This document shows, piece after piece, positions 315-15,929 of a stretch of DNA of 64,000 nucleotides (position 1 is its first letter; every line of letters begins with the position of its first letter). The translations under genes and the position numbers were made by a program. The notes under the pieces are model-generated. The model ran no database searches. It worked only from the letters and a program-made list of their open reading frames with translations, and had not been told where the DNA came from. This DNA comes from Escherichia coli (lineage in GTDB: Bacteria > Pseudomonadota > Gammaproteobacteria > Enterobacterales > Enterobacteriaceae): assembly GCF_030013205.1 (NCBI RefSeq), contig NZ_CP122648.1, one strand, 5' to 3'.

Positions 315-1535
315 ATGACACCAGGCGGACAAGCTCAGATAGGTAATGTTGATCTCGTAAAACAGCTTAACAGCGCGGCGGTTTATCGCCTGATTGACCA
401 GTATGGGCCAATCTCGCGGATTCAGATTGCCGAGCAAAGCCAGCTTGCCCCCGCCAGCGTAACCAAAATTACGCGTCAGCTTATCGAACGCGGGCTGATC
501 AAAGAAGTTGATCAGCAGGCCTCCACCGGGGGCCGCCGCGCTATCTCTATCGTCACCGAAACCCGCAATTTCCACGCAATCGGTGTACGGCTTGGTCGTC
601 ACGACGCCACCATTACTCTGTTCGATCTCAGTAGCAAAGTGCTGGCAGAAGAACATTACCCGCTGCCGGAACGTACCCAGCAGACGCTGGAACATGCCCT
701 GCTGAATGCCATTGCTCAGTTTATTGATAGCTACCAGCGCAAGCTGCGCGAGCTGATTGCCATTTCCGTGATCCTGCCAGGGCTTGTTGACCCGGACAGC
801 GGCAAAATTCATTACATGCCGCATATTCAGGTAGAAAACTGGGGGCTGGTAGAAGCACTGGAAGAGCGTTTTAAAGTGACCTGTTTTGTCGGCCACGATA
901 TCCGTAGTCTGGCGCTGGCAGAGCACTACTTCGGTGCAAGTCAGGATTGCGAAGACTCCATTTTAGTGCGTGTCCATCGCGGGACCGGGGCAGGGATTAT
1001 CTCTAACGGGCGCATTTTTATTGGCCGCAACGGTAACGTCGGTGAAATTGGCCATATTCAGGTCGAACCGCTGGGTGAACGCTGCCACTGCGGCAACTTT
1101 GGCTGCCTGGAAACTATTGCTGCCAACGCTGCTATTGAACAACGGGTGTTGAATCTGTTAAAGCAGGGCTACCAGAGCCGCGTGCCGCTGGACGACTGCA
1201 CCATAAAAACTATCTGCAAAGCTGCGAACAAAGGCGATAGCCTGGCGTCGGAAGTGATTGAGTATGTGGGTCGTCATCTGGGCAAAACCATCGCCATTGC
1301 GATCAACTTATTTAATCCGCAAAAAATTGTTATTGCCGGTGAAATCACCGAAGCCGATAAAGTGCTGCTCCCTGCTATTGAAAGCTGCATTAATACCCAG
1401 GCGCTGAAGGCGTTTCGCACTAATCTTCCGGTGGTACGTTCTGAGTTGGATCACCGCTCGGCAATCGGCGCTTTTGCGCTGGTAAAACGCGCCATGCTCA
1501 ACGGTATTTTGCTCCAGCATTTGCTGGAAAATTAA
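315..1535 (+). CDS. nagC: N-acetylglucosamine repressor NagC (ROK family)
   Basis: 406-aa ORF MTPGGQAQIGNVDLVKQLNS..; ROK-type CHCGNFGCLE zinc motif; position between nagA and nagD. Confidence 0.95.
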   Translation: MTPGGQAQIGNVDLVKQLNSAAVYRLIDQYGPISRIQIAEQSQLAPASVTKITRQLIERGLIKEVDQQASTGGRRAISIVTETRNFHAIGVRLGRHDATITLFDLSSKVLAEEHYPLPERTQQTLEHALLNAIAQFIDSYQRKLRELIAISVILPGLVDPDSGKIHYMPHIQVENWGLVEALEERFKVTCFVGHDIRSLALAEHYFGASQDCEDSILVRVHRGTGAGIISNGRIFIGRNGNVGEIGHIQVEPLGERCHCGNFGCLETIAANAAIEQRVLNLLKQGYQSRVPLDDCTIKTICKAANKGDSLASEVIEYVGRHLGKTIAIAINLFNPQKIVIAGEITEADKVLLPAIESCINTQALKAFRTNLPVVRSELDHRSAIGAFALVKRAMLNGILLQHLLEN

Positions 1536-1582
1536 TGTGCTTTTATAGTGGCGCTTATTGTTGTCAATATTCTGGGTAGTCC

Positions 1583-2335
1583 ATGACCATTAAAAATGTA
1601 ATTTGCGATATCGACGGCGTGCTGATGCACGATAACGTCGCCGTACCGGGTGCAGCGGAATTTTTGCACGGGATTATGGATAAAGGCCTGCCGCTGGTGT
1701 TGCTGACCAACTATCCTTCGCAGACCGGGCAAGATCTGGCGAATCGCTTTGCCACTGCGGGTGTCGATGTGCCGGACAGCGTGTTTTATACCTCCGCGAT
1801 GGCAACCGCCGATTTCCTGCGTCGCCAGGAAGGCAAGAAAGCGTATGTGGTGGGCGAAGGCGCACTGATTCATGAACTGTACAAAGCCGGTTTCACTATT
1901 ACCGATGTGAACCCTGATTTTGTGATTGTTGGCGAAACGCGTTCCTACAACTGGGACATGATGCATAAAGCAGCCTATTTCGTCGCTAACGGTGCACGCT
2001 TTATCGCCACCAACCCGGACACCCACGGGCGCGGTTTTTATCCGGCCTGTGGCGCGCTATGCGCGGGGATCGAAAAAATCTCCGGACGTAAACCGTTCTA
2101 TGTTGGTAAGCCGAGTCCGTGGATCATCCGCGCAGCATTAAACAAAATGCAGGCGCATTCGGAAGAAACGGTGATTGTCGGCGATAACCTGCGTACCGAT
2201 ATTCTGGCGGGCTTCCAGGCCGGTCTGGAGACGATTCTGGTGCTTTCTGGTGTTTCATCGCTCGACGATATCGACAGTATGCCATTCCGCCCCAGCTGGA
2301 TTTACCCATCGGTCGCCGAAATCGACGTTATCTGA
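1583..2335 (+). CDS. nagD: UMP phosphatase NagD/UmpH (HAD superfamily)
   Basis: 250-aa ORF with HAD motif I (CDIDGVLMHD) near the N terminus; follows nagC. Confidence 0.95.
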   Translation: MTIKNVICDIDGVLMHDNVAVPGAAEFLHGIMDKGLPLVLLTNYPSQTGQDLANRFATAGVDVPDSVFYTSAMATADFLRRQEGKKAYVVGEGALIHELYKAGFTITDVNPDFVIVGETRSYNWDMMHKAAYFVANGARFIATNPDTHGRGFYPACGALCAGIEKISGRKPFYVGKPSPWIIRAALNKMQAHSEETVIVGDNLRTDILAGFQAGLETILVLSGVSSLDDIDSMPFRPSWIYPSVAEIDVI

Positions 2336-2591
2336 ATAGCAACCACGCCTCAGGGCGTGGTTTCTTATTTTTACCCATCACTAAAATTCGCCCATTCAAT
2401 AAAACCCGCCAAAAATTATCGATTCATCAATAAATACACCTCCACACCCTACCCTTTTTCATTAATCAGCAATCACCATTACGTTTTTTATTCCCCCCCT
2501 GCCAAATCGCTTGCGCACAGTGCTGCTTTGCGGCATTTTTTTAAACAAGCAAACACAACAAACAACAAATACCAGGTTAACGGAGAAGGTT

Positions 2592-4256
2592 ATGTGTTCA
2601 ATTTTTGGCGTATTCGATATCAAAACAGACGCAGTTGAGCTGCGTAAGAAAGCACTCGAACTGTCACGCCTGATGCGTCATCGTGGCCCGGACTGGTCCG
2701 GTATTTATGCCAGCGATAACGCCATTCTCGCCCACGAACGTCTGTCAATTGTTGACGTTAACGCGGGGGCGCAACCTCTCTACAACCAACAAAAAACTCA
2801 TGTGCTGGCGGTAAACGGTGAAATCTACAACCACCAGGCACTGCGCGCCGAATATGGCGATCGTTATCAGTTCCAGACCGGATCTGACTGCGAAGTGATC
2901 CTCGCGCTGTATCAGGAAAAAGGGCCGGAATTTCTCGACGACTTGCAGGGCATGTTTGCCTTTGCCCTGTACGACAGCGAAAAAGATGCATATCTGATTG
3001 GTCGCGACCATCTGGGGATCATCCCACTGTATATGGGCTATGACGAACACGGTCAGCTGTATGTGGCCTCAGAAATGAAAGCCCTGGTGCCAGTTTGCCG
3101 CACGATTAAAGAGTTCCCGGCGGGGAGCTATTTGTGGAGCCAGGACGGCGAAATCCGTTCTTATTATCACCGCGACTGGTTCGACTTTGATGCAGTGAAA
3201 GATAACGTGACCGACAAAAACGAGCTGCGTCAGGCACTGGAAGATTCCGTTAAAAGCCATCTGATGTCTGATGTGCCTTACGGTGTGCTGCTTTCTGGTG
3301 GTCTGGATTCCTCAATTATTTCCGCGATCACCAAGAAATACGCCGCCCGTCGCGTGGAAGATCAGGAACGTTCTGAAGCCTGGTGGCCGCAGTTACACTC
3401 CTTTGCTGTAGGTCTGCCGGGTTCACCGGATCTGAAAGCAGCCCAGGAAGTGGCAAACCATCTGGGCACTGTGCATCACGAAATTCACTTCACTGTACAG
3501 GAAGGTCTGGACGCCATCCGCGACGTGATTTACCACATCGAAACCTATGATGTGACCACTATTCGCGCTTCAACACCGATGTATTTAATGTCGCGTAAGA
3601 TCAAGGCGATGGGCATTAAAATGGTGCTGTCCGGTGAAGGTTCTGATGAAGTGTTTGGCGGTTATCTTTACTTCCACAAAGCACCGAATGCCAAAGAACT
3701 GCATGAAGAGACGGTGCGTAAACTGCTGGCCCTGCATATGTATGACTGCGCGCGTGCCAACAAAGCGATGTCAGCCTGGGGCGTGGAAGCACGCGTTCCG
3801 TTCCTCGACAAAAAATTCCTTGATGTGGCGATGCGTATTAACCCACAGGATAAAATGTGCGGTAACGGCAAAATGGAAAAACACATCCTGCGTGAATGTT
3901 TTGAAGCGTATCTGCCTGCAAGCGTGGCCTGGCGGCAGAAAGAGCAGTTCTCCGATGGCGTCGGTTACAGTTGGATCGATACCCTGAAAGAAGTGGCGGC
4001 GCAGCAGGTTTCTGATCAACAGCTGGAAACTGCCCACTTCCGCTTCCCGTACAACACGCCGACGTCCAAAGAAGCGTATCTGTACCGGGAGATCTTTGAA
4101 GAACTGTTCCCGCTTCCGAGCGCCGCAGAGTGCGTACCGGGCGGTCCTTCCGTCGCGTGTTCTTCCGCTAAAGCGATCGAATGGGATGAAGCGTTCAAAA
4201 AAATGGACGATCCATCTGGTCGTGCGGTTGGTGTTCACCAGTCGGCATATAAATAA
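2592..4256 (+). CDS. asnB: asparagine synthetase B (glutamine-hydrolysing)
   Basis: 554 aa beginning MCSIFGV (N-terminal Cys of class II amidotransferases), SGGLDSS PP-loop; ATG at 2592 preceded by GGAGAAGG; the longer track ORF from 2511 is an upstream extension. Confidence 0.95.
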   Translation: MCSIFGVFDIKTDAVELRKKALELSRLMRHRGPDWSGIYASDNAILAHERLSIVDVNAGAQPLYNQQKTHVLAVNGEIYNHQALRAEYGDRYQFQTGSDCEVILALYQEKGPEFLDDLQGMFAFALYDSEKDAYLIGRDHLGIIPLYMGYDEHGQLYVASEMKALVPVCRTIKEFPAGSYLWSQDGEIRSYYHRDWFDFDAVKDNVTDKNELRQALEDSVKSHLMSDVPYGVLLSGGLDSSIISAITKKYAARRVEDQERSEAWWPQLHSFAVGLPGSPDLKAAQEVANHLGTVHHEIHFTVQEGLDAIRDVIYHIETYDVTTIRASTPMYLMSRKIKAMGIKMVLSGEGSDEVFGGYLYFHKAPNAKELHEETVRKLLALHMYDCARANKAMSAWGVEARVPFLDKKFLDVAMRINPQDKMCGNGKMEKHILRECFEAYLPASVAWRQKEQFSDGVGYSWIDTLKEVAAQQVSDQQLETAHFRFPYNTPTSKEAYLYREIFEELFPLPSAAECVPGGPSVACSSAKAIEWDEAFKKMDDPSGRAVGVHQSAYK

Positions 4257-4636: not shown

Positions 4637-4713
4637 GGCTACGTAGCTCAGTTGGTTAGAGCACATCACTCATAATGATGGGGTCACAGGTTCGAATCCC
4701 GTCGTAGCCACCA
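4637..4713 (+). tRNA. metT: tRNA-Met (anticodon CAU, elongator)
   Basis: 77-nt sequence GGCTACGTAGCTCAGTTGGTTAGAGCACATCACTCATAATGATGGGGTCACAGGTTCGAATCCCGTCGTAGCCACCA with encoded CCA. Confidence 0.95.
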
Positions 4714-4721
4714 TCTTTTTT

Positions 4722-4806
4722 GCGGGAGTGGCGAAATTGGTAGACGCACCAGATTTAGGTTCTGGCGCCGCAAGGTGTGCGAGTTCAAGTCTCGCCTCCC
4801 GCACCA
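4722..4806 (+). tRNA. leuW: tRNA-Leu (anticodon UAG)
   Basis: 85-nt type II tRNA with long variable arm; anticodon loop TTTAGGT; encoded CCA. Confidence 0.95.
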
Positions 4807-4829
4807 TTCACCAGAAAGCGTTGTACGGA

Positions 4830-4904
4830 TGGGGTATCGCCAAGCGGTAAGGCACCGGTTTTTGATACCGGCATTCCCTGGTTCGAATCCAGGTACCCCA
4901 GCCA
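4830..4904 (+). tRNA. glnU: tRNA-Gln (anticodon UUG)
   Basis: 75-nt TGGGGTATCGCCAAGCGGTAAGGCACCGGTTTTTGATACCGG..CCAGCCA; anticodon TTG. Confidence 0.95.
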
Positions 4905-4938
4905 TATTCTTCGAGTAAGCGGTTCACCGCCCGGTTAT

Positions 4939-5013
4939 TGGGGTATCGCCAAGCGGTAAGGCACCGGTTTTTGATACCGGCATTCCCTGGTTCGAATCCA
5001 GGTACCCCAGCCA
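4939..5013 (+). tRNA. glnW: tRNA-Gln (anticodon UUG), identical second copy
   Basis: 75-nt sequence identical to the copy at 4830-4904. Confidence 0.95.
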
Positions 5014-5028
5014 TCGAAGAAACAATCT

Positions 5029-5105
5029 GGCTACGTAGCTCAGTTGGTTAGAGCACATCACTCATAATGATGGGGTCACAGGTTCGAATCCCGTCGTAGC
5101 CACCA
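5029..5105 (+). tRNA. metU: tRNA-Met (anticodon CAU), second copy
   Basis: 77-nt sequence identical to 4637-4713. Confidence 0.95.
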
Positions 5106-10776: not shown

Positions 10777-12315
10777 ATGGCTTTTGCCTCATTAATTGAA
10801 CGCCAGCGCATTCGCCTGCTGCTGGCGTTATTATTCGGTGCCTGCGGAACGCTGGCCTTCTCTCCTTACGACGTCTGGCCTGCGGCGATTATTTCGCTGA
10901 TGGGGCTTCAGGCGCTGACCTTTAACCGCCGTCCACTCCAGTCTGCCGCTATTGGCTTTTGCTGGGGATTTGGCCTCTTTGGCAGCGGTATTAACTGGGT
11001 CTATGTCAGCATCGCGACTTTTGGTGGAATGCCTGGCCCGGTTAACATCTTCCTGGTGGTGCTGCTGGCGGCGTATTTGTCGCTGTATACCGGACTGTTT
11101 GCTGGCGTGCTGTCGCGTCTGTGGCCGAAAACCACCTGGCTGCGCGTGGCGATTGCCGCCCCTGCTCTCTGGCAAGTGACCGAGTTTCTGCGCGGTTGGG
11201 TGCTGACCGGCTTCCCGTGGTTACAGTTCGGCTATAGCCAGATTGATGGCCCGTTAAAAGGGCTGGCACCGATAATGGGCGTGGAAGCCATTAACTTCCT
11301 GCTGATGATGGTTAGTGGCCTGCTGGCACTGGCGTTGGTCAAACGCAACTGGCGTCCGCTGGTAGTGGCCGTCGTGCTGTTTGCCCTTCCCTTCCCGCTG
11401 CGTTACATCCAGTGGTTTACCCCGCAACCGGAGAAAACCATTCAGGTTTCGATGGTTCAGGGCGATATTCCGCAATCACTGAAATGGGACGAAGGCCAGC
11501 TTCTTAATACGCTGAAGATTTACTACAACGCAACGGCACCGCTGATGGGCAAATCATCGTTGATTATCTGGCCGGAGTCGGCGATAACCGATCTGGAAAT
11601 TAATCAGCAACCGTTCCTCAAAGCACTGGACGGTGAGTTGCGCGATAAAGGGAGCTCGCTGGTAACCGGGATTGTTGACGCGCGTCTCAATAAGCAGAAC
11701 CGCTACGATACTTACAACACCATCATCACGCTGGGGAAAGGTGCGCCGTACAGCTACGAATCAGCCGATCGCTATAACAAAAACCATCTGGTGCCGTTTG
11801 GCGAGTTTGTCCCGCTGGAGTCGATTCTGCGTCCGTTAGCGCCGTTCTTTGATCTGCCGATGTCGTCGTTCAGCCGTGGGCCATATATCCAGCCACCGCT
11901 GTCGGTAAACGGTATTGAGCTTACTGCGGCTATTTGCTACGAGATCATTCTCGGCGAGCAAGTGCGTGATAACTTCCGCCCGGATACCGACTATCTGCTG
12001 ACTATCTCCAACGATGCGTGGTTTGGTAAGTCTATTGGTCCATGGCAGCACTTCCAGATGGCGCGAATGCGTGCGTTGGAGCTGGCGCGCCCATTGCTGC
12101 GTAGCACCAACAACGGTATTACGGCGGTGATTGGCCCGCAGGGTGAGATTCAGGCGATGATCCCGCAATTCACCCGCGAGGTGTTAACCACTAACGTGAC
12201 GCCGACTACCGGACTTACACCGTACGCACGTACCGGCAACTGGCCTCTGTGGGTGCTGACGGCACTGTTTGGTTTTGCTGCTGTGCTGATGAGCCTGCGT
12301 CAACGACGTAAATAA
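10777..12315 (+). CDS. lnt: apolipoprotein N-acyltransferase
   Basis: 512 aa; N-terminal polytopic membrane region followed by a C-N hydrolase domain. Confidence 0.95.
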
Positions 12316-12327
12316 TCCCTTCTTATC

Positions 12328-12390
12328 GTGCCGGAATACATCCCGTATTTCGGCACGCTCACCGGATGCGGCATCAGTGCGTTATCCGGA
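12328..12390. repeat. hairpin plus REP-like palindrome downstream of lnt
   Basis: GTGCCGGAATACATCCCGTATTTCGGCAC inverted repeat followed by ACCGGATGCGGCATCAGTGCGTTATCCGG. Confidence 0.4.
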
Positions 12391-12644
12391 TAACAAAATC
12401 CCCCTATCCAACTTTGGCACATCTATTGCTTTGTTATACAAGGCAAAGCTTGAACCAGCATCAGTACAACCCGGTTGCACCACAGCAATCCACGGGTAGC
12501 ACCAAAAGAGTGCATTTTAAGAATTTTGCTTCGGAATGGTGCGGCGCAACTCGCAAAAACAAACAATAAAACAGCAATATCTTTACATTTAGCCAAACTA
12601 AATGTTACCTAACAGGCACAACACTGCACAATAAAGTTGCAGAC

Positions 12645-12670
12645 GATAACAACACAAACACTCACAACGG
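12645..12670 (+). promoter_or_regulatory. C/A-rich element in the gltI 5' UTR, candidate GcvB sRNA target site
   Basis: GATAACAACACAAACACTCACAACGG lies about 40 nt upstream of the gltI start codon; gltI is a known GcvB target through a C/A-rich element. Confidence 0.35.
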
Positions 12671-12711
12671 GTATCCATGCGTTCTTAACGCAGAAGATAA
12701 AGGAGTTGGAT

Positions 12712-13620
12712 ATGCAATTACGTAAACCTGCCACAGCAATCCTGGCCCTGGCGCTTTCCGCAGGACTGGCACAGGCAGATGACGCCGCCCCGGCAGCAGG
12801 CAGTACGCTGGACAAAATCGCCAAAAACGGTGTGATTGTCGTCGGTCACCGTGAATCTTCAGTACCTTTCTCTTATTACGACAATCAGCAAAAAGTGGTG
12901 GGTTACTCGCAGGATTACTCCAACGCCATTGTTGAAGCAGTGAAAAAGAAACTCAACAAACCGGACTTGCAGGTGAAACTGATTCCGATCACCTCACAAA
13001 ACCGTATTCCTCTGCTGCAAAACGGCACTTTCGATTTTGAATGTGGTTCCACCACCAATAACGTCGAACGCCAGAAACAGGCGGCTTTCTCTGACACTAT
13101 TTTCGTGGTCGGCACGCGCCTGTTGACCAAAAAGGGGGGCGATATCAAAGATTTTGCCGACCTGAAAGGCAAAGCCGTAGTCGTCACTTCCGGCACTACT
13201 TCTGAAGTTTTGCTCAACAAACTGAATGAAGAGCAAAAAATGAATATGCGCATCATCAGCGCCAAAGATCACGGTGACTCTTTCCGCACCCTGGAAAGCG
13301 GTCGTGCCGTTGCCTTTATGATGGATGATGCTCTGCTGGCTGGTGAACGTGCGAAAGCGAAGAAACCAGACAACTGGGAAATCGTCGGCAAGCCGCAGTC
13401 TCAGGAAGCCTACGGTTGTATGTTGCGTAAAGACGATCCGCAGTTCAAAAAGCTGATGGATGACACCATCGCGCAGGTGCAGACCTCCGGTGAAGCGGAA
13501 AAATGGTTTGATAAATGGTTCAAAAATCCAATTCCGCCGAAAAACCTGAACATGAATTTCGAACTGTCAGACGAAATGAAAGCACTGTTCAAAGAACCGA
13601 ATGACAAGGCACTGAACTAA
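12712..13620 (+). CDS. gltI: glutamate/aspartate ABC transporter periplasmic binding protein
   Basis: 302 aa from the ATG at 12712 (RBS AAGGAG), signal peptide MQLRKPATAILALALSAGLAQA; the track ORF starts upstream at 12637. Confidence 0.95.
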   Translation: MQLRKPATAILALALSAGLAQADDAAPAAGSTLDKIAKNGVIVVGHRESSVPFSYYDNQQKVVGYSQDYSNAIVEAVKKKLNKPDLQVKLIPITSQNRIPLLQNGTFDFECGSTTNNVERQKQAAFSDTIFVVGTRLLTKKGGDIKDFADLKGKAVVVTSGTTSEVLLNKLNEEQKMNMRIISAKDHGDSFRTLESGRAVAFMMDDALLAGERAKAKKPDNWEIVGKPQSQEAYGCMLRKDDPQFKKLMDDTIAQVQTSGEAEKWFDKWFKNPIPPKNLNMNFELSDEMKALFKEPNDKALN

Positions 13621-13777
13621 TTACAAGAACCAGGGGCGGAAATTCCAGCCCTCTCGATTGTTACGTAGCACGGACAGACTATACGCCTGATGGTCGTTCC
13701 CCATCGGGCCTGAAAACCGCAATACGCTGGGTAACAATCTTCGAGGGTAGCAGTTAACGCTGCTACCCTCTTTTTTC
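13621..13777 (+). ncRNA. sroC: SroC sRNA locus (gltI 3' region / gltI-gltJ spacer)
   Basis: Intergenic stretch ending in a strong terminator (GAGGGTAGCAG-TTAAC-GCTGCTACCCTC followed by TTTTTT, 13743-13776); SroC is known to derive from this position; 5' end not determinable from sequence. Confidence 0.5.
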
Positions 13778-13789
13778 TGGAGTAGATTT

Positions 13790-15204: not shown

Positions 15205-15929
15205 TGATTACCCTGAAAAATGTTTCAAAATGGTATGGTCACTTTCAGGTGCTGACCGACTGCTCAACCGAAGTGAAAAAAGGCGAAGTGGTGGTGGTTT
15301 GCGGCCCGTCTGGTTCCGGCAAATCAACGCTGATTAAAACCGTCAACGGCCTCGAACCGGTGCAGCAAGGTGAAATTACCGTCGATGGCATCGTGGTTAA
15401 CGATAAGAAAACCGATCTGGCAAAGCTGCGTTCCCGCGTCGGGATGGTGTTCCAGCATTTCGAGTTGTTCCCCCATTTGTCGATTATTGAAAACCTGACC
15501 CTGGCGCAGGTGAAAGTGCTTAAACGCGATAAAGCACCCGCTCGTGAAAAAGCATTGAAATTGCTGGAGCGCGTGGGACTTTCCGCACATGCCAATAAAT
15601 TTCCGGCGCAGCTTTCCGGCGGTCAGCAACAGCGTGTGGCGATCGCTCGCGCATTGTGTATGGATCCTATTGCCATGCTGTTCGACGAACCGACATCGGC
15701 GCTGGATCCGGAGATGATCAACGAAGTGCTGGACGTAATGGTCGAACTGGCGAACGAAGGAATGACCATGATGGTGGTGACCCACGAAATGGGCTTTGCC
15801 CGTAAAGTGGCGAATCGGGTGATCTTTATGGACGAGGGTAAAATTGTCGAAGACTCGCCGAAAGACGCTTTCTTCGATGATCCGAAATCGGACCGCGCAA
15901 AAGACTTCCTCGCGAAAATCCTGCATTAA
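15204..15929 (+). CDS. gltL: glutamate/aspartate ABC transporter ATP-binding protein
   Basis: 241 aa; Walker [10 protein letters not shown] and ABC signature LSGGQQQR. Confidence 0.95.

Follow-up and report, generated by a model that had tools for sequence, protein, structure and literature searches.

The closest described counterpart of the locus is that of Escherichia coli K-12, in which an IS5 copy, listed as gltI/lnt or insH3, lies between lnt and gltI (PMC11677980, PMC4591121, PMC9731577, PMC1174868). IS5 targets CTAA or CTAG (PMC11677980), and the locus has been cited as an example of IS5 altering regulation (PMC9208149). Both sigma-70 and sigma-54 promoters are stated for gltIJKL, and the induction of SroC under nitrogen limitation is dependent on promoters upstream (PMC9731577). 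ChIP-seq in K-12 detected a sigma-54 site, OS04, that was assigned to 'insH3' on account of the IS5 downstream of it in that strain (PMC4591121), and an NtrC peak (688381-688461) that was assigned to gltIJKL (PMC4066584). By gSELEX, the RpoN holoenzyme and NtrC were both placed in the K-12 insH/lnt spacer (PMC8743547). Published work attributes the weak nitrogen-limitation induction of K-12 to the separation caused by IS5, and intact induction is reported for O157 and O111 strains. Binding of sigma-54 and NtrC and the effect of IS5 are taken here from that literature, with the coordinates, the IS5 junction, the allele frequencies, the outgroup comparison and the conservation coming from the present analysis.

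We analysed a stretch of 64,000 nucleotides of E. coli DNA (the window), which carries ybeY, corC, lnt, gltI, gltJ, gltK and gltL on its plus strand. The lnt gene (apolipoprotein N-acyltransferase; 10777-12315, plus strand; 512 aa, C-terminus ...SLRQRRK), assigned from its ORF and from annotation in matching E. coli genomes, ends with a TAA stop at 12313-12315. The gltI gene (periplasmic glutamate/aspartate-binding protein; 12712-13620, plus strand; 302 aa), assigned from its ORF frame and the annotation of matching genomes, starts with an ATG at 12712 and encodes a protein with 87-99% identity to the GltI of 80 enterobacterial loci. The spacer between them thus measures 396 bp (12316-12711), exactly as delimited in an earlier note on this DNA. 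The sRNA sroC, which comes from the 3' end of the gltI mRNA, was identified at 13616-13778 on the plus strand (Rfam RF00369; 174.8 bits, E = 9e-38). The earlier note was also correct that the spacer is free of insertion sequences: the IS5 terminal repeat had no match in the 64-kb window at up to 3 mismatches, and the spacer contains no ORF longer than 67 aa.

That K-12 carries IS5 between lnt and gltI, which the earlier note had stated, is confirmed by RefSeq annotation, by alignment and by the published lists. The RefSeq record of K-12 (O16:H48) has an 'IS5-like element IS5 family transposase' annotated between the two genes, and alignment to this locus gave colinear flanks, with window 12000-12612 corresponding to 2883-3495 and window 12605-13000 to 4687-5082, and with the window in the uninterrupted state. 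The BLAST breakpoints fall at window 12612 and 12605, and the difference of 1199 bp is made up of a complete IS5 of 1195 bp and a 4-bp duplication of CTAA. At the K-12 junctions the inverted ends of IS5 (GGAAGGTGCGAA...TTCGCACCTTCC) have CTAA on either side, the element is oriented like lnt and gltI, and the duplicated CTAA lies 99 bp from the gltI ATG. In the window a single CTAA (YTAR type) is found at 12609-12612 between colinear flanks, so the junction sequences and breakpoints identify it as the unoccupied form of the target that is occupied and duplicated in K-12. Identity to K-12 falls to 92-94% across window 12200-12500, with most flanking 150-bp windows at 96-100%. We are highly confident that 12316-12711 is a native, never-interrupted regulatory region of the glutamate/aspartate transporter operon gltIJKL-sroC, in an arrangement ancestral to Enterobacteriaceae, from which K-12 differs by IS5. 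The IS5 difference is real but already known and ordinary.

Searches of 5,426 complete E. coli genomes resolved three allele classes at this locus. The intact short spacer seen in the window is carried by 1,834 genomes and an alternative segment of about 2.2 kb by 3,232; the K-12 IS5 junction was recovered in one piece from 353 genomes with a 200-bp query and from 351 with a stricter 58-bp query. Together the classes add up to 5,417-5,419 genomes, and the remainder includes rearrangements such as that in KD602. The uninterrupted short spacer is not the majority state of E. coli, since 3,232 of the 5,426 genomes carry the different 2.2-kb allele. A 796-bp query over the spacer matched 5,424 of the 5,426 complete genomes; identity to the window of at least 99% over this query was found in just 22 of 5,425 records, indicating an uncommon variant of the short allele. 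In KD602 (L003, 4276-6597) an IS1 adjoins a truncated rhomboid gene and a truncated ybeQ, and the locus lacks gltIJKL, an arrangement suggestive of a deletion associated with IS1.

The long allele, present in BL21, C, HS and 042 and in most E. coli, has the same lnt and gltI as the window and is identical to it from about 12467 to gltI, whereas about 2.2 kb (772-3000 of the BL21 locus, L002) stand in place of window 12300 to about 12410. The BL21 segment encodes, on the opposite strand between lnt and gltI, a 625-aa 'rhomboid family intramembrane serine protease' with a Rhomboid domain by Pfam (3e-29) and YVTN-type beta-propeller repeats at its C-terminal end. Unlike the window, this allele has a different REP of its own and a true intrinsic terminator after lnt. 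The rhomboid gene is an annotated accessory gene and not a discovery, and a search of a literature collection for a rhomboid gene at the lnt-gltI locus found nothing relevant. Copies of the long allele within E. coli differ by up to about 6.5%. Homology between the short and the long allele ends at 12299, five codons before the lnt stop and inside the gene, so the last five residues of Lnt are RQRRK in the window and RARKR in BL21 and other long-allele strains. High identity resumes only from 12467; the intervening 12410-12466 can be aligned between the two alleles, at only about 60% identity. The two alleles are not related by a clean insertion. In BL21-RIPL (L002, 5738-6227) the annotation gives gltL as a truncated pseudogene with a tRNA-Val behind it, and beyond window position 15560 or so the identity of the two sequences falls steeply to about 54%.

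The locus was then compared across Enterobacteriaceae, with species-representative genomes scanned with a GltI query to give 80 loci, in which lnt, gltI and the rhomboid protein were sought with tblastn. Of the 80 loci, 78 yielded both lnt and gltI, all of them colinear, with spacers of 334-881 bp that mostly measured 350-450 bp; the exceptions were two Escherichia loci with the rhomboid allele. In every non-Escherichia species with both genes (about 75 in all), for example of Salmonella, Citrobacter, Enterobacter, Klebsiella, Kluyvera, Buttiauxella, Cedecea and Atlantibacter, gltI directly follows lnt, and tblastn found no rhomboid homologue between the two genes in any of them. Within Escherichia, a short allele of 395-396 bp with the hairpin of the window was present in E. 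albertii, Escherichia sp. E1V33 and E. coli SCPM-O-B-8794, and the long allele was present in E. whittamii and Escherichia sp. MOD1-EC7003, whose protein is 91.5-92.6% identical to that of the BL21 gene. The presence of both alleles in several Escherichia species points to a shared polymorphism or to repeated transfer. Two records of the sample are probably mislabelled or contaminated assemblies: 'Chryseobacterium sp. 18061' contains an enterobacterial lnt-gltI locus with a GltI that is 91% identical, and the spacer of 'Citrobacter freundii M-21' aligns closely with those of Atlantibacter.

As the outgroups have a short spacer without the rhomboid gene, the window represents the ancestral enterobacterial arrangement, and the rhomboid segment is an Escherichia-specific acquisition that is still polymorphic. 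The reverse reading, in which the short spacer is a derived state left by secondary deletion of the 2.2-kb segment, would fit the majority status of the long allele in E. coli, its occurrence in E. whittamii and MOD1-EC7003, and the lack of a clean insertion relation between the alleles, with 12300 to about 12410 replaced and the stretch to 12466 strongly diverged. It is nevertheless very unlikely, given that the sampled non-Escherichia species are all short and that the 395-396-bp allele, hairpin included, recurs in E. albertii and two other Escherichia genomes. Furthermore, blastn at word size 7 found nothing left of the rhomboid gene in the window, and the sigma-54 site of the window is one base from that of Salmonella, with the long-allele version, TGGCATGTAAGTTGCT, further off.

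A second way of reaching the present sequence with one CTAA would be that IS5 was once present in this lineage and was lost by precise excision, the window being a revertant. Precise excision does leave a single CTAA and could not be told by sequence alone from a site that was never occupied. Three observations make it highly improbable compared with a never-interrupted spacer. Occupancy is limited to the roughly 351-353 junction genomes, and a sample of 46 full-length rows taken across their ranking (4.47-4.76 Mb; MG1655, DH1, TG1, JM109, TOP10, MC4100 and others) reads in all 46 cases as K-12-lineage laboratory strains, lineage being read from names and genome sizes with no typing. Where the locus was read directly, the CTAA site is unoccupied: in BL21, E. 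whittamii, MOD1-EC7003, E1V33 and SCPM-O-B-8794, with CTAG in E. albertii and MOD1-EC7003. Finally, around 12200-12500 the window and K-12 disagree at 6-8% of positions, which sets the window apart from recent K-12 derivatives. IS elements are well known for causing gaps in assemblies, but an assembly artefact by repeat collapse has next to no probability here, as the 796-bp query is 100% identical to the finished chromosome of E. coli CFSAN018748, 1,834 complete genomes are equally continuous, and a collapsed repeat would not leave behind one CTAA between flanks that are perfectly colinear.

The earlier note had described the spacer as containing only a hairpin, a REP-like palindrome and the gltI leader; both structures are present, but "only" was wrong, as a sigma-54 promoter, NtrC-like sites and other conserved blocks lie between lnt and gltI. 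Directly after lnt, a perfect-stem hairpin (13-bp stem, 5-nt loop; 12327-12357, plus strand) was identified by folding of 12310-12400 (91 nt), which gave -34.2 kcal/mol (z = -5.45 relative to shuffles). The second stem of this fold is a single REP-like unit (12360-12389, plus strand), a fuzzy consensus match 4 edits from the REP consensus of about 35 bp, with one further such match in the 64-kb window. Against Rfam the palindrome scored 23.7 bits for naRNA4 (REP325-derived), below the threshold of 59.5, and nothing else was found over the spacer. The hairpin recurs in E. albertii and Escherichia sp. E1V33, both with short alleles, and is absent from other genera, and the segment from lnt to the sigma-54 promoter is not conserved between genera, although it usually holds some palindrome or terminator. 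We considered the hairpin as an intrinsic terminator. The sequence behind its stem, CTCACCGG, lacks the T-run of a canonical one, and a scan for intrinsic terminators returned none in the spacer. The hairpin and the REP-like palindrome probably act as a 3'-end or mRNA-stabilising structure of the ybeZ-ybeY-corC-lnt transcript.

A sigma-54 promoter (TTGGCACATCTATTGCT; GG at 12416-17, GC at 12428-29) was located at 12414-12430 on the plus strand by consensus match and by identity of its 17-mer to the K-12 ChIP-seq site OS04 (PMC4591121). A search for TGGCACN5TTGCW with no mismatch gave a single hit in the window, at 12415-12430 on the plus strand, with GG-N10-GC spacing. Conservation was assessed in spacer alignments of 22 and then 39 enterobacterial species, and across the 39 the GGC...TTGC core is invariant or nearly so. 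The sigma-54 transcription start would lie at about 12441, leaving a leader of about 271 nt. A second sigma-54 promoter was considered at 12615-12629 (AGGCACAACACTGCA) and rejected, its GG-to-GC spacing being one base short and its GG not conserved in other genera. In long-allele strains the motif TGGCATGTAAGTTGCT stands in the same register, 52 bp before homology resumes.

Downstream of this promoter, a cluster of NtrC-like sites (12475-12543) was recognised by reading against the NtrC consensus, TGCACCN4TGGTGCA, and by conservation. It consists of a TGCACCA half-site (12476-82), AGCACCAAAAGAGTGCA (12498-12514) and TGCTTCGGAATGGTGCG (12527-12543), and its GCACC...GTGCA elements are invariant in the 39 species. 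The published K-12 NtrC peak maps to window 12420-12500 or thereabouts, assuming an ungapped K-12 alignment. In all 39 species the sites are downstream of the sigma-54 start, with centres at roughly +43, +65 and +94, and they lie about 85-135 bp upstream of a sigma-70-like promoter. NtrC enhancers are usually positioned upstream, and the layout here inverts that of glnAp1/glnAp2. Because sites downstream of a sigma-54 start are atypical, the geometry of activation is one that we infer.

A near-invariant block (TGGTGCGGCGCAnnTCGCAAAAAnAAACAAT; 12537-12567) was defined by the 39-species alignment, in which the predicted pairs of the block never vary and thus provide no evidence for RNA structure. 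The sigma-70-like promoter (12582-12611, plus strand) would comprise a -35 element TTTACA (12582-87) and TGtTACCTA (12603-11). TTTACA and TAAATGnTA are invariant in the 39 species, and TGtTACCTA reads TGtTAACAA in other genera. A scan for consensus sigma-70 promoters called none in the spacer, and the -10 of the proposed promoter is poor in E. coli, so the promoter is put forward from conservation only.

The 5' UTR of gltI contains a C/A-rich element (GATAACAACACAAACACTCACAAC; 12645-12668, plus strand) upstream of the Shine-Dalgarno sequence, of which ATAACAAC...TCAC is conserved across genera in the 39-species alignment. Such an element has been described for Salmonella gltI as a target of the GcvB sRNA and a translational enhancer (PMC4474525), and 12645-12668 is, by analogy, a putative GcvB target of gltI in the window. 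A small hairpin just upstream of the Shine-Dalgarno sequence (12678-12692, plus strand) was found with RNAalifold (alignment columns 313-332). Five of its pairs show changes on both sides, such as GC to AU in three sequences, and the compensatory changes of the leader across genera (GCGT/ACGC, GCAT/ATGC, GCC/GGC) are confined to it. The Shine-Dalgarno sequence, AAGGAG, is at 12700-12705 on the plus strand, with AGGAG invariant in the 39 species. That the leader, of about 271 nt, holds a structured RNA or riboswitch was also considered and rejected, as the covariation term from RNAalifold over the 39 species amounted to just -0.41 kcal/mol; leader pairs outside the hairpin that precedes the Shine-Dalgarno sequence are all invariant.

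Read from lnt onwards, the spacer is ordered as hairpin, REP-like palindrome, sigma-54 promoter, NtrC-like sites, sigma-70-like promoter, C/A-rich 5' UTR and ribosome-binding site. In K-12 a complete IS5 inserted in one event at the CTAA at 12609-12612. This CTAA comes after the sigma-54 promoter and the NtrC-like sites, where the sigma-70-like promoter ends, so in K-12 the sigma-54 promoter and the NtrC-like sites and, presumably, the sigma-70-like promoter are moved 1.2 kb from gltI. With no IS5 in the spacer, induction of gltIJKL and SroC by NtrC and sigma-54 under nitrogen limitation should be intact in the strain of the window, in line with the reports on O157 and O111 strains.

Three features of the region are mildly unusual and fall outside the original claim: the conserved placement of the NtrC-like sites past the sigma-54 start, the invariant block 12537-12567, and the short/long polymorphism across Escherichia. 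NtrC bound at a downstream enhancer might activate the sigma-54 promoter far upstream and also modulate the proximal promoter, and the block 12537-12567 might bind a further factor. The short and long alleles, the latter with the rhomboid/beta-propeller gene and altered Lnt C-terminus, could be an old polymorphism maintained across species. These readings are tentative and on balance doubtful.

Compared with Salmonella enterica, where the gltI promoter is dependent on NtrC and sigma-54, the window shares a short lnt-gltI spacer (353 bp in subsp. diarizonae) and the same order of NtrC-like sites, TTTACA box, C/A-rich element and Shine-Dalgarno sequence. The sigma-54 site of Salmonella LT2 gltI, TGGCACGTCTATTGCTTT, is 1 base from that of the window (PMC3844500), and the long-allele version, as seen above, is further from it. 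The segment between lnt and the sigma-54 site, in contrast, is unrelated, with one REP-like palindrome and no 13-bp hairpin in Salmonella, and Salmonella does not have the CTAA target because it reads ACAAAC where Escherichia reads CCTAAC. The K-12 locus (lnt-insH3(IS5)-gltI, b0655-b0657) has orthologous flanks, the same sigma-54 17-mer, NtrC-like sites, CTAA, leader and gltI, and an identity to the window of 92-100% per 150-bp window; it differs in the 1195-bp IS5 and the second CTAA after window 12612, neither of which the window has. IS5 being peculiar to the K-12 lineage, regulation data from K-12 are not representative of most E. coli at this locus. The two thirds of E. coli genomes with another allele, carrying the rhomboid gene, are useful to keep in view when promoters are compared between strains. 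The IS5 of K-12 is thus best regarded as a laboratory-lineage peculiarity that blunts nitrogen-limitation control of gltIJKL and SroC, and the window as the wild-type wiring.
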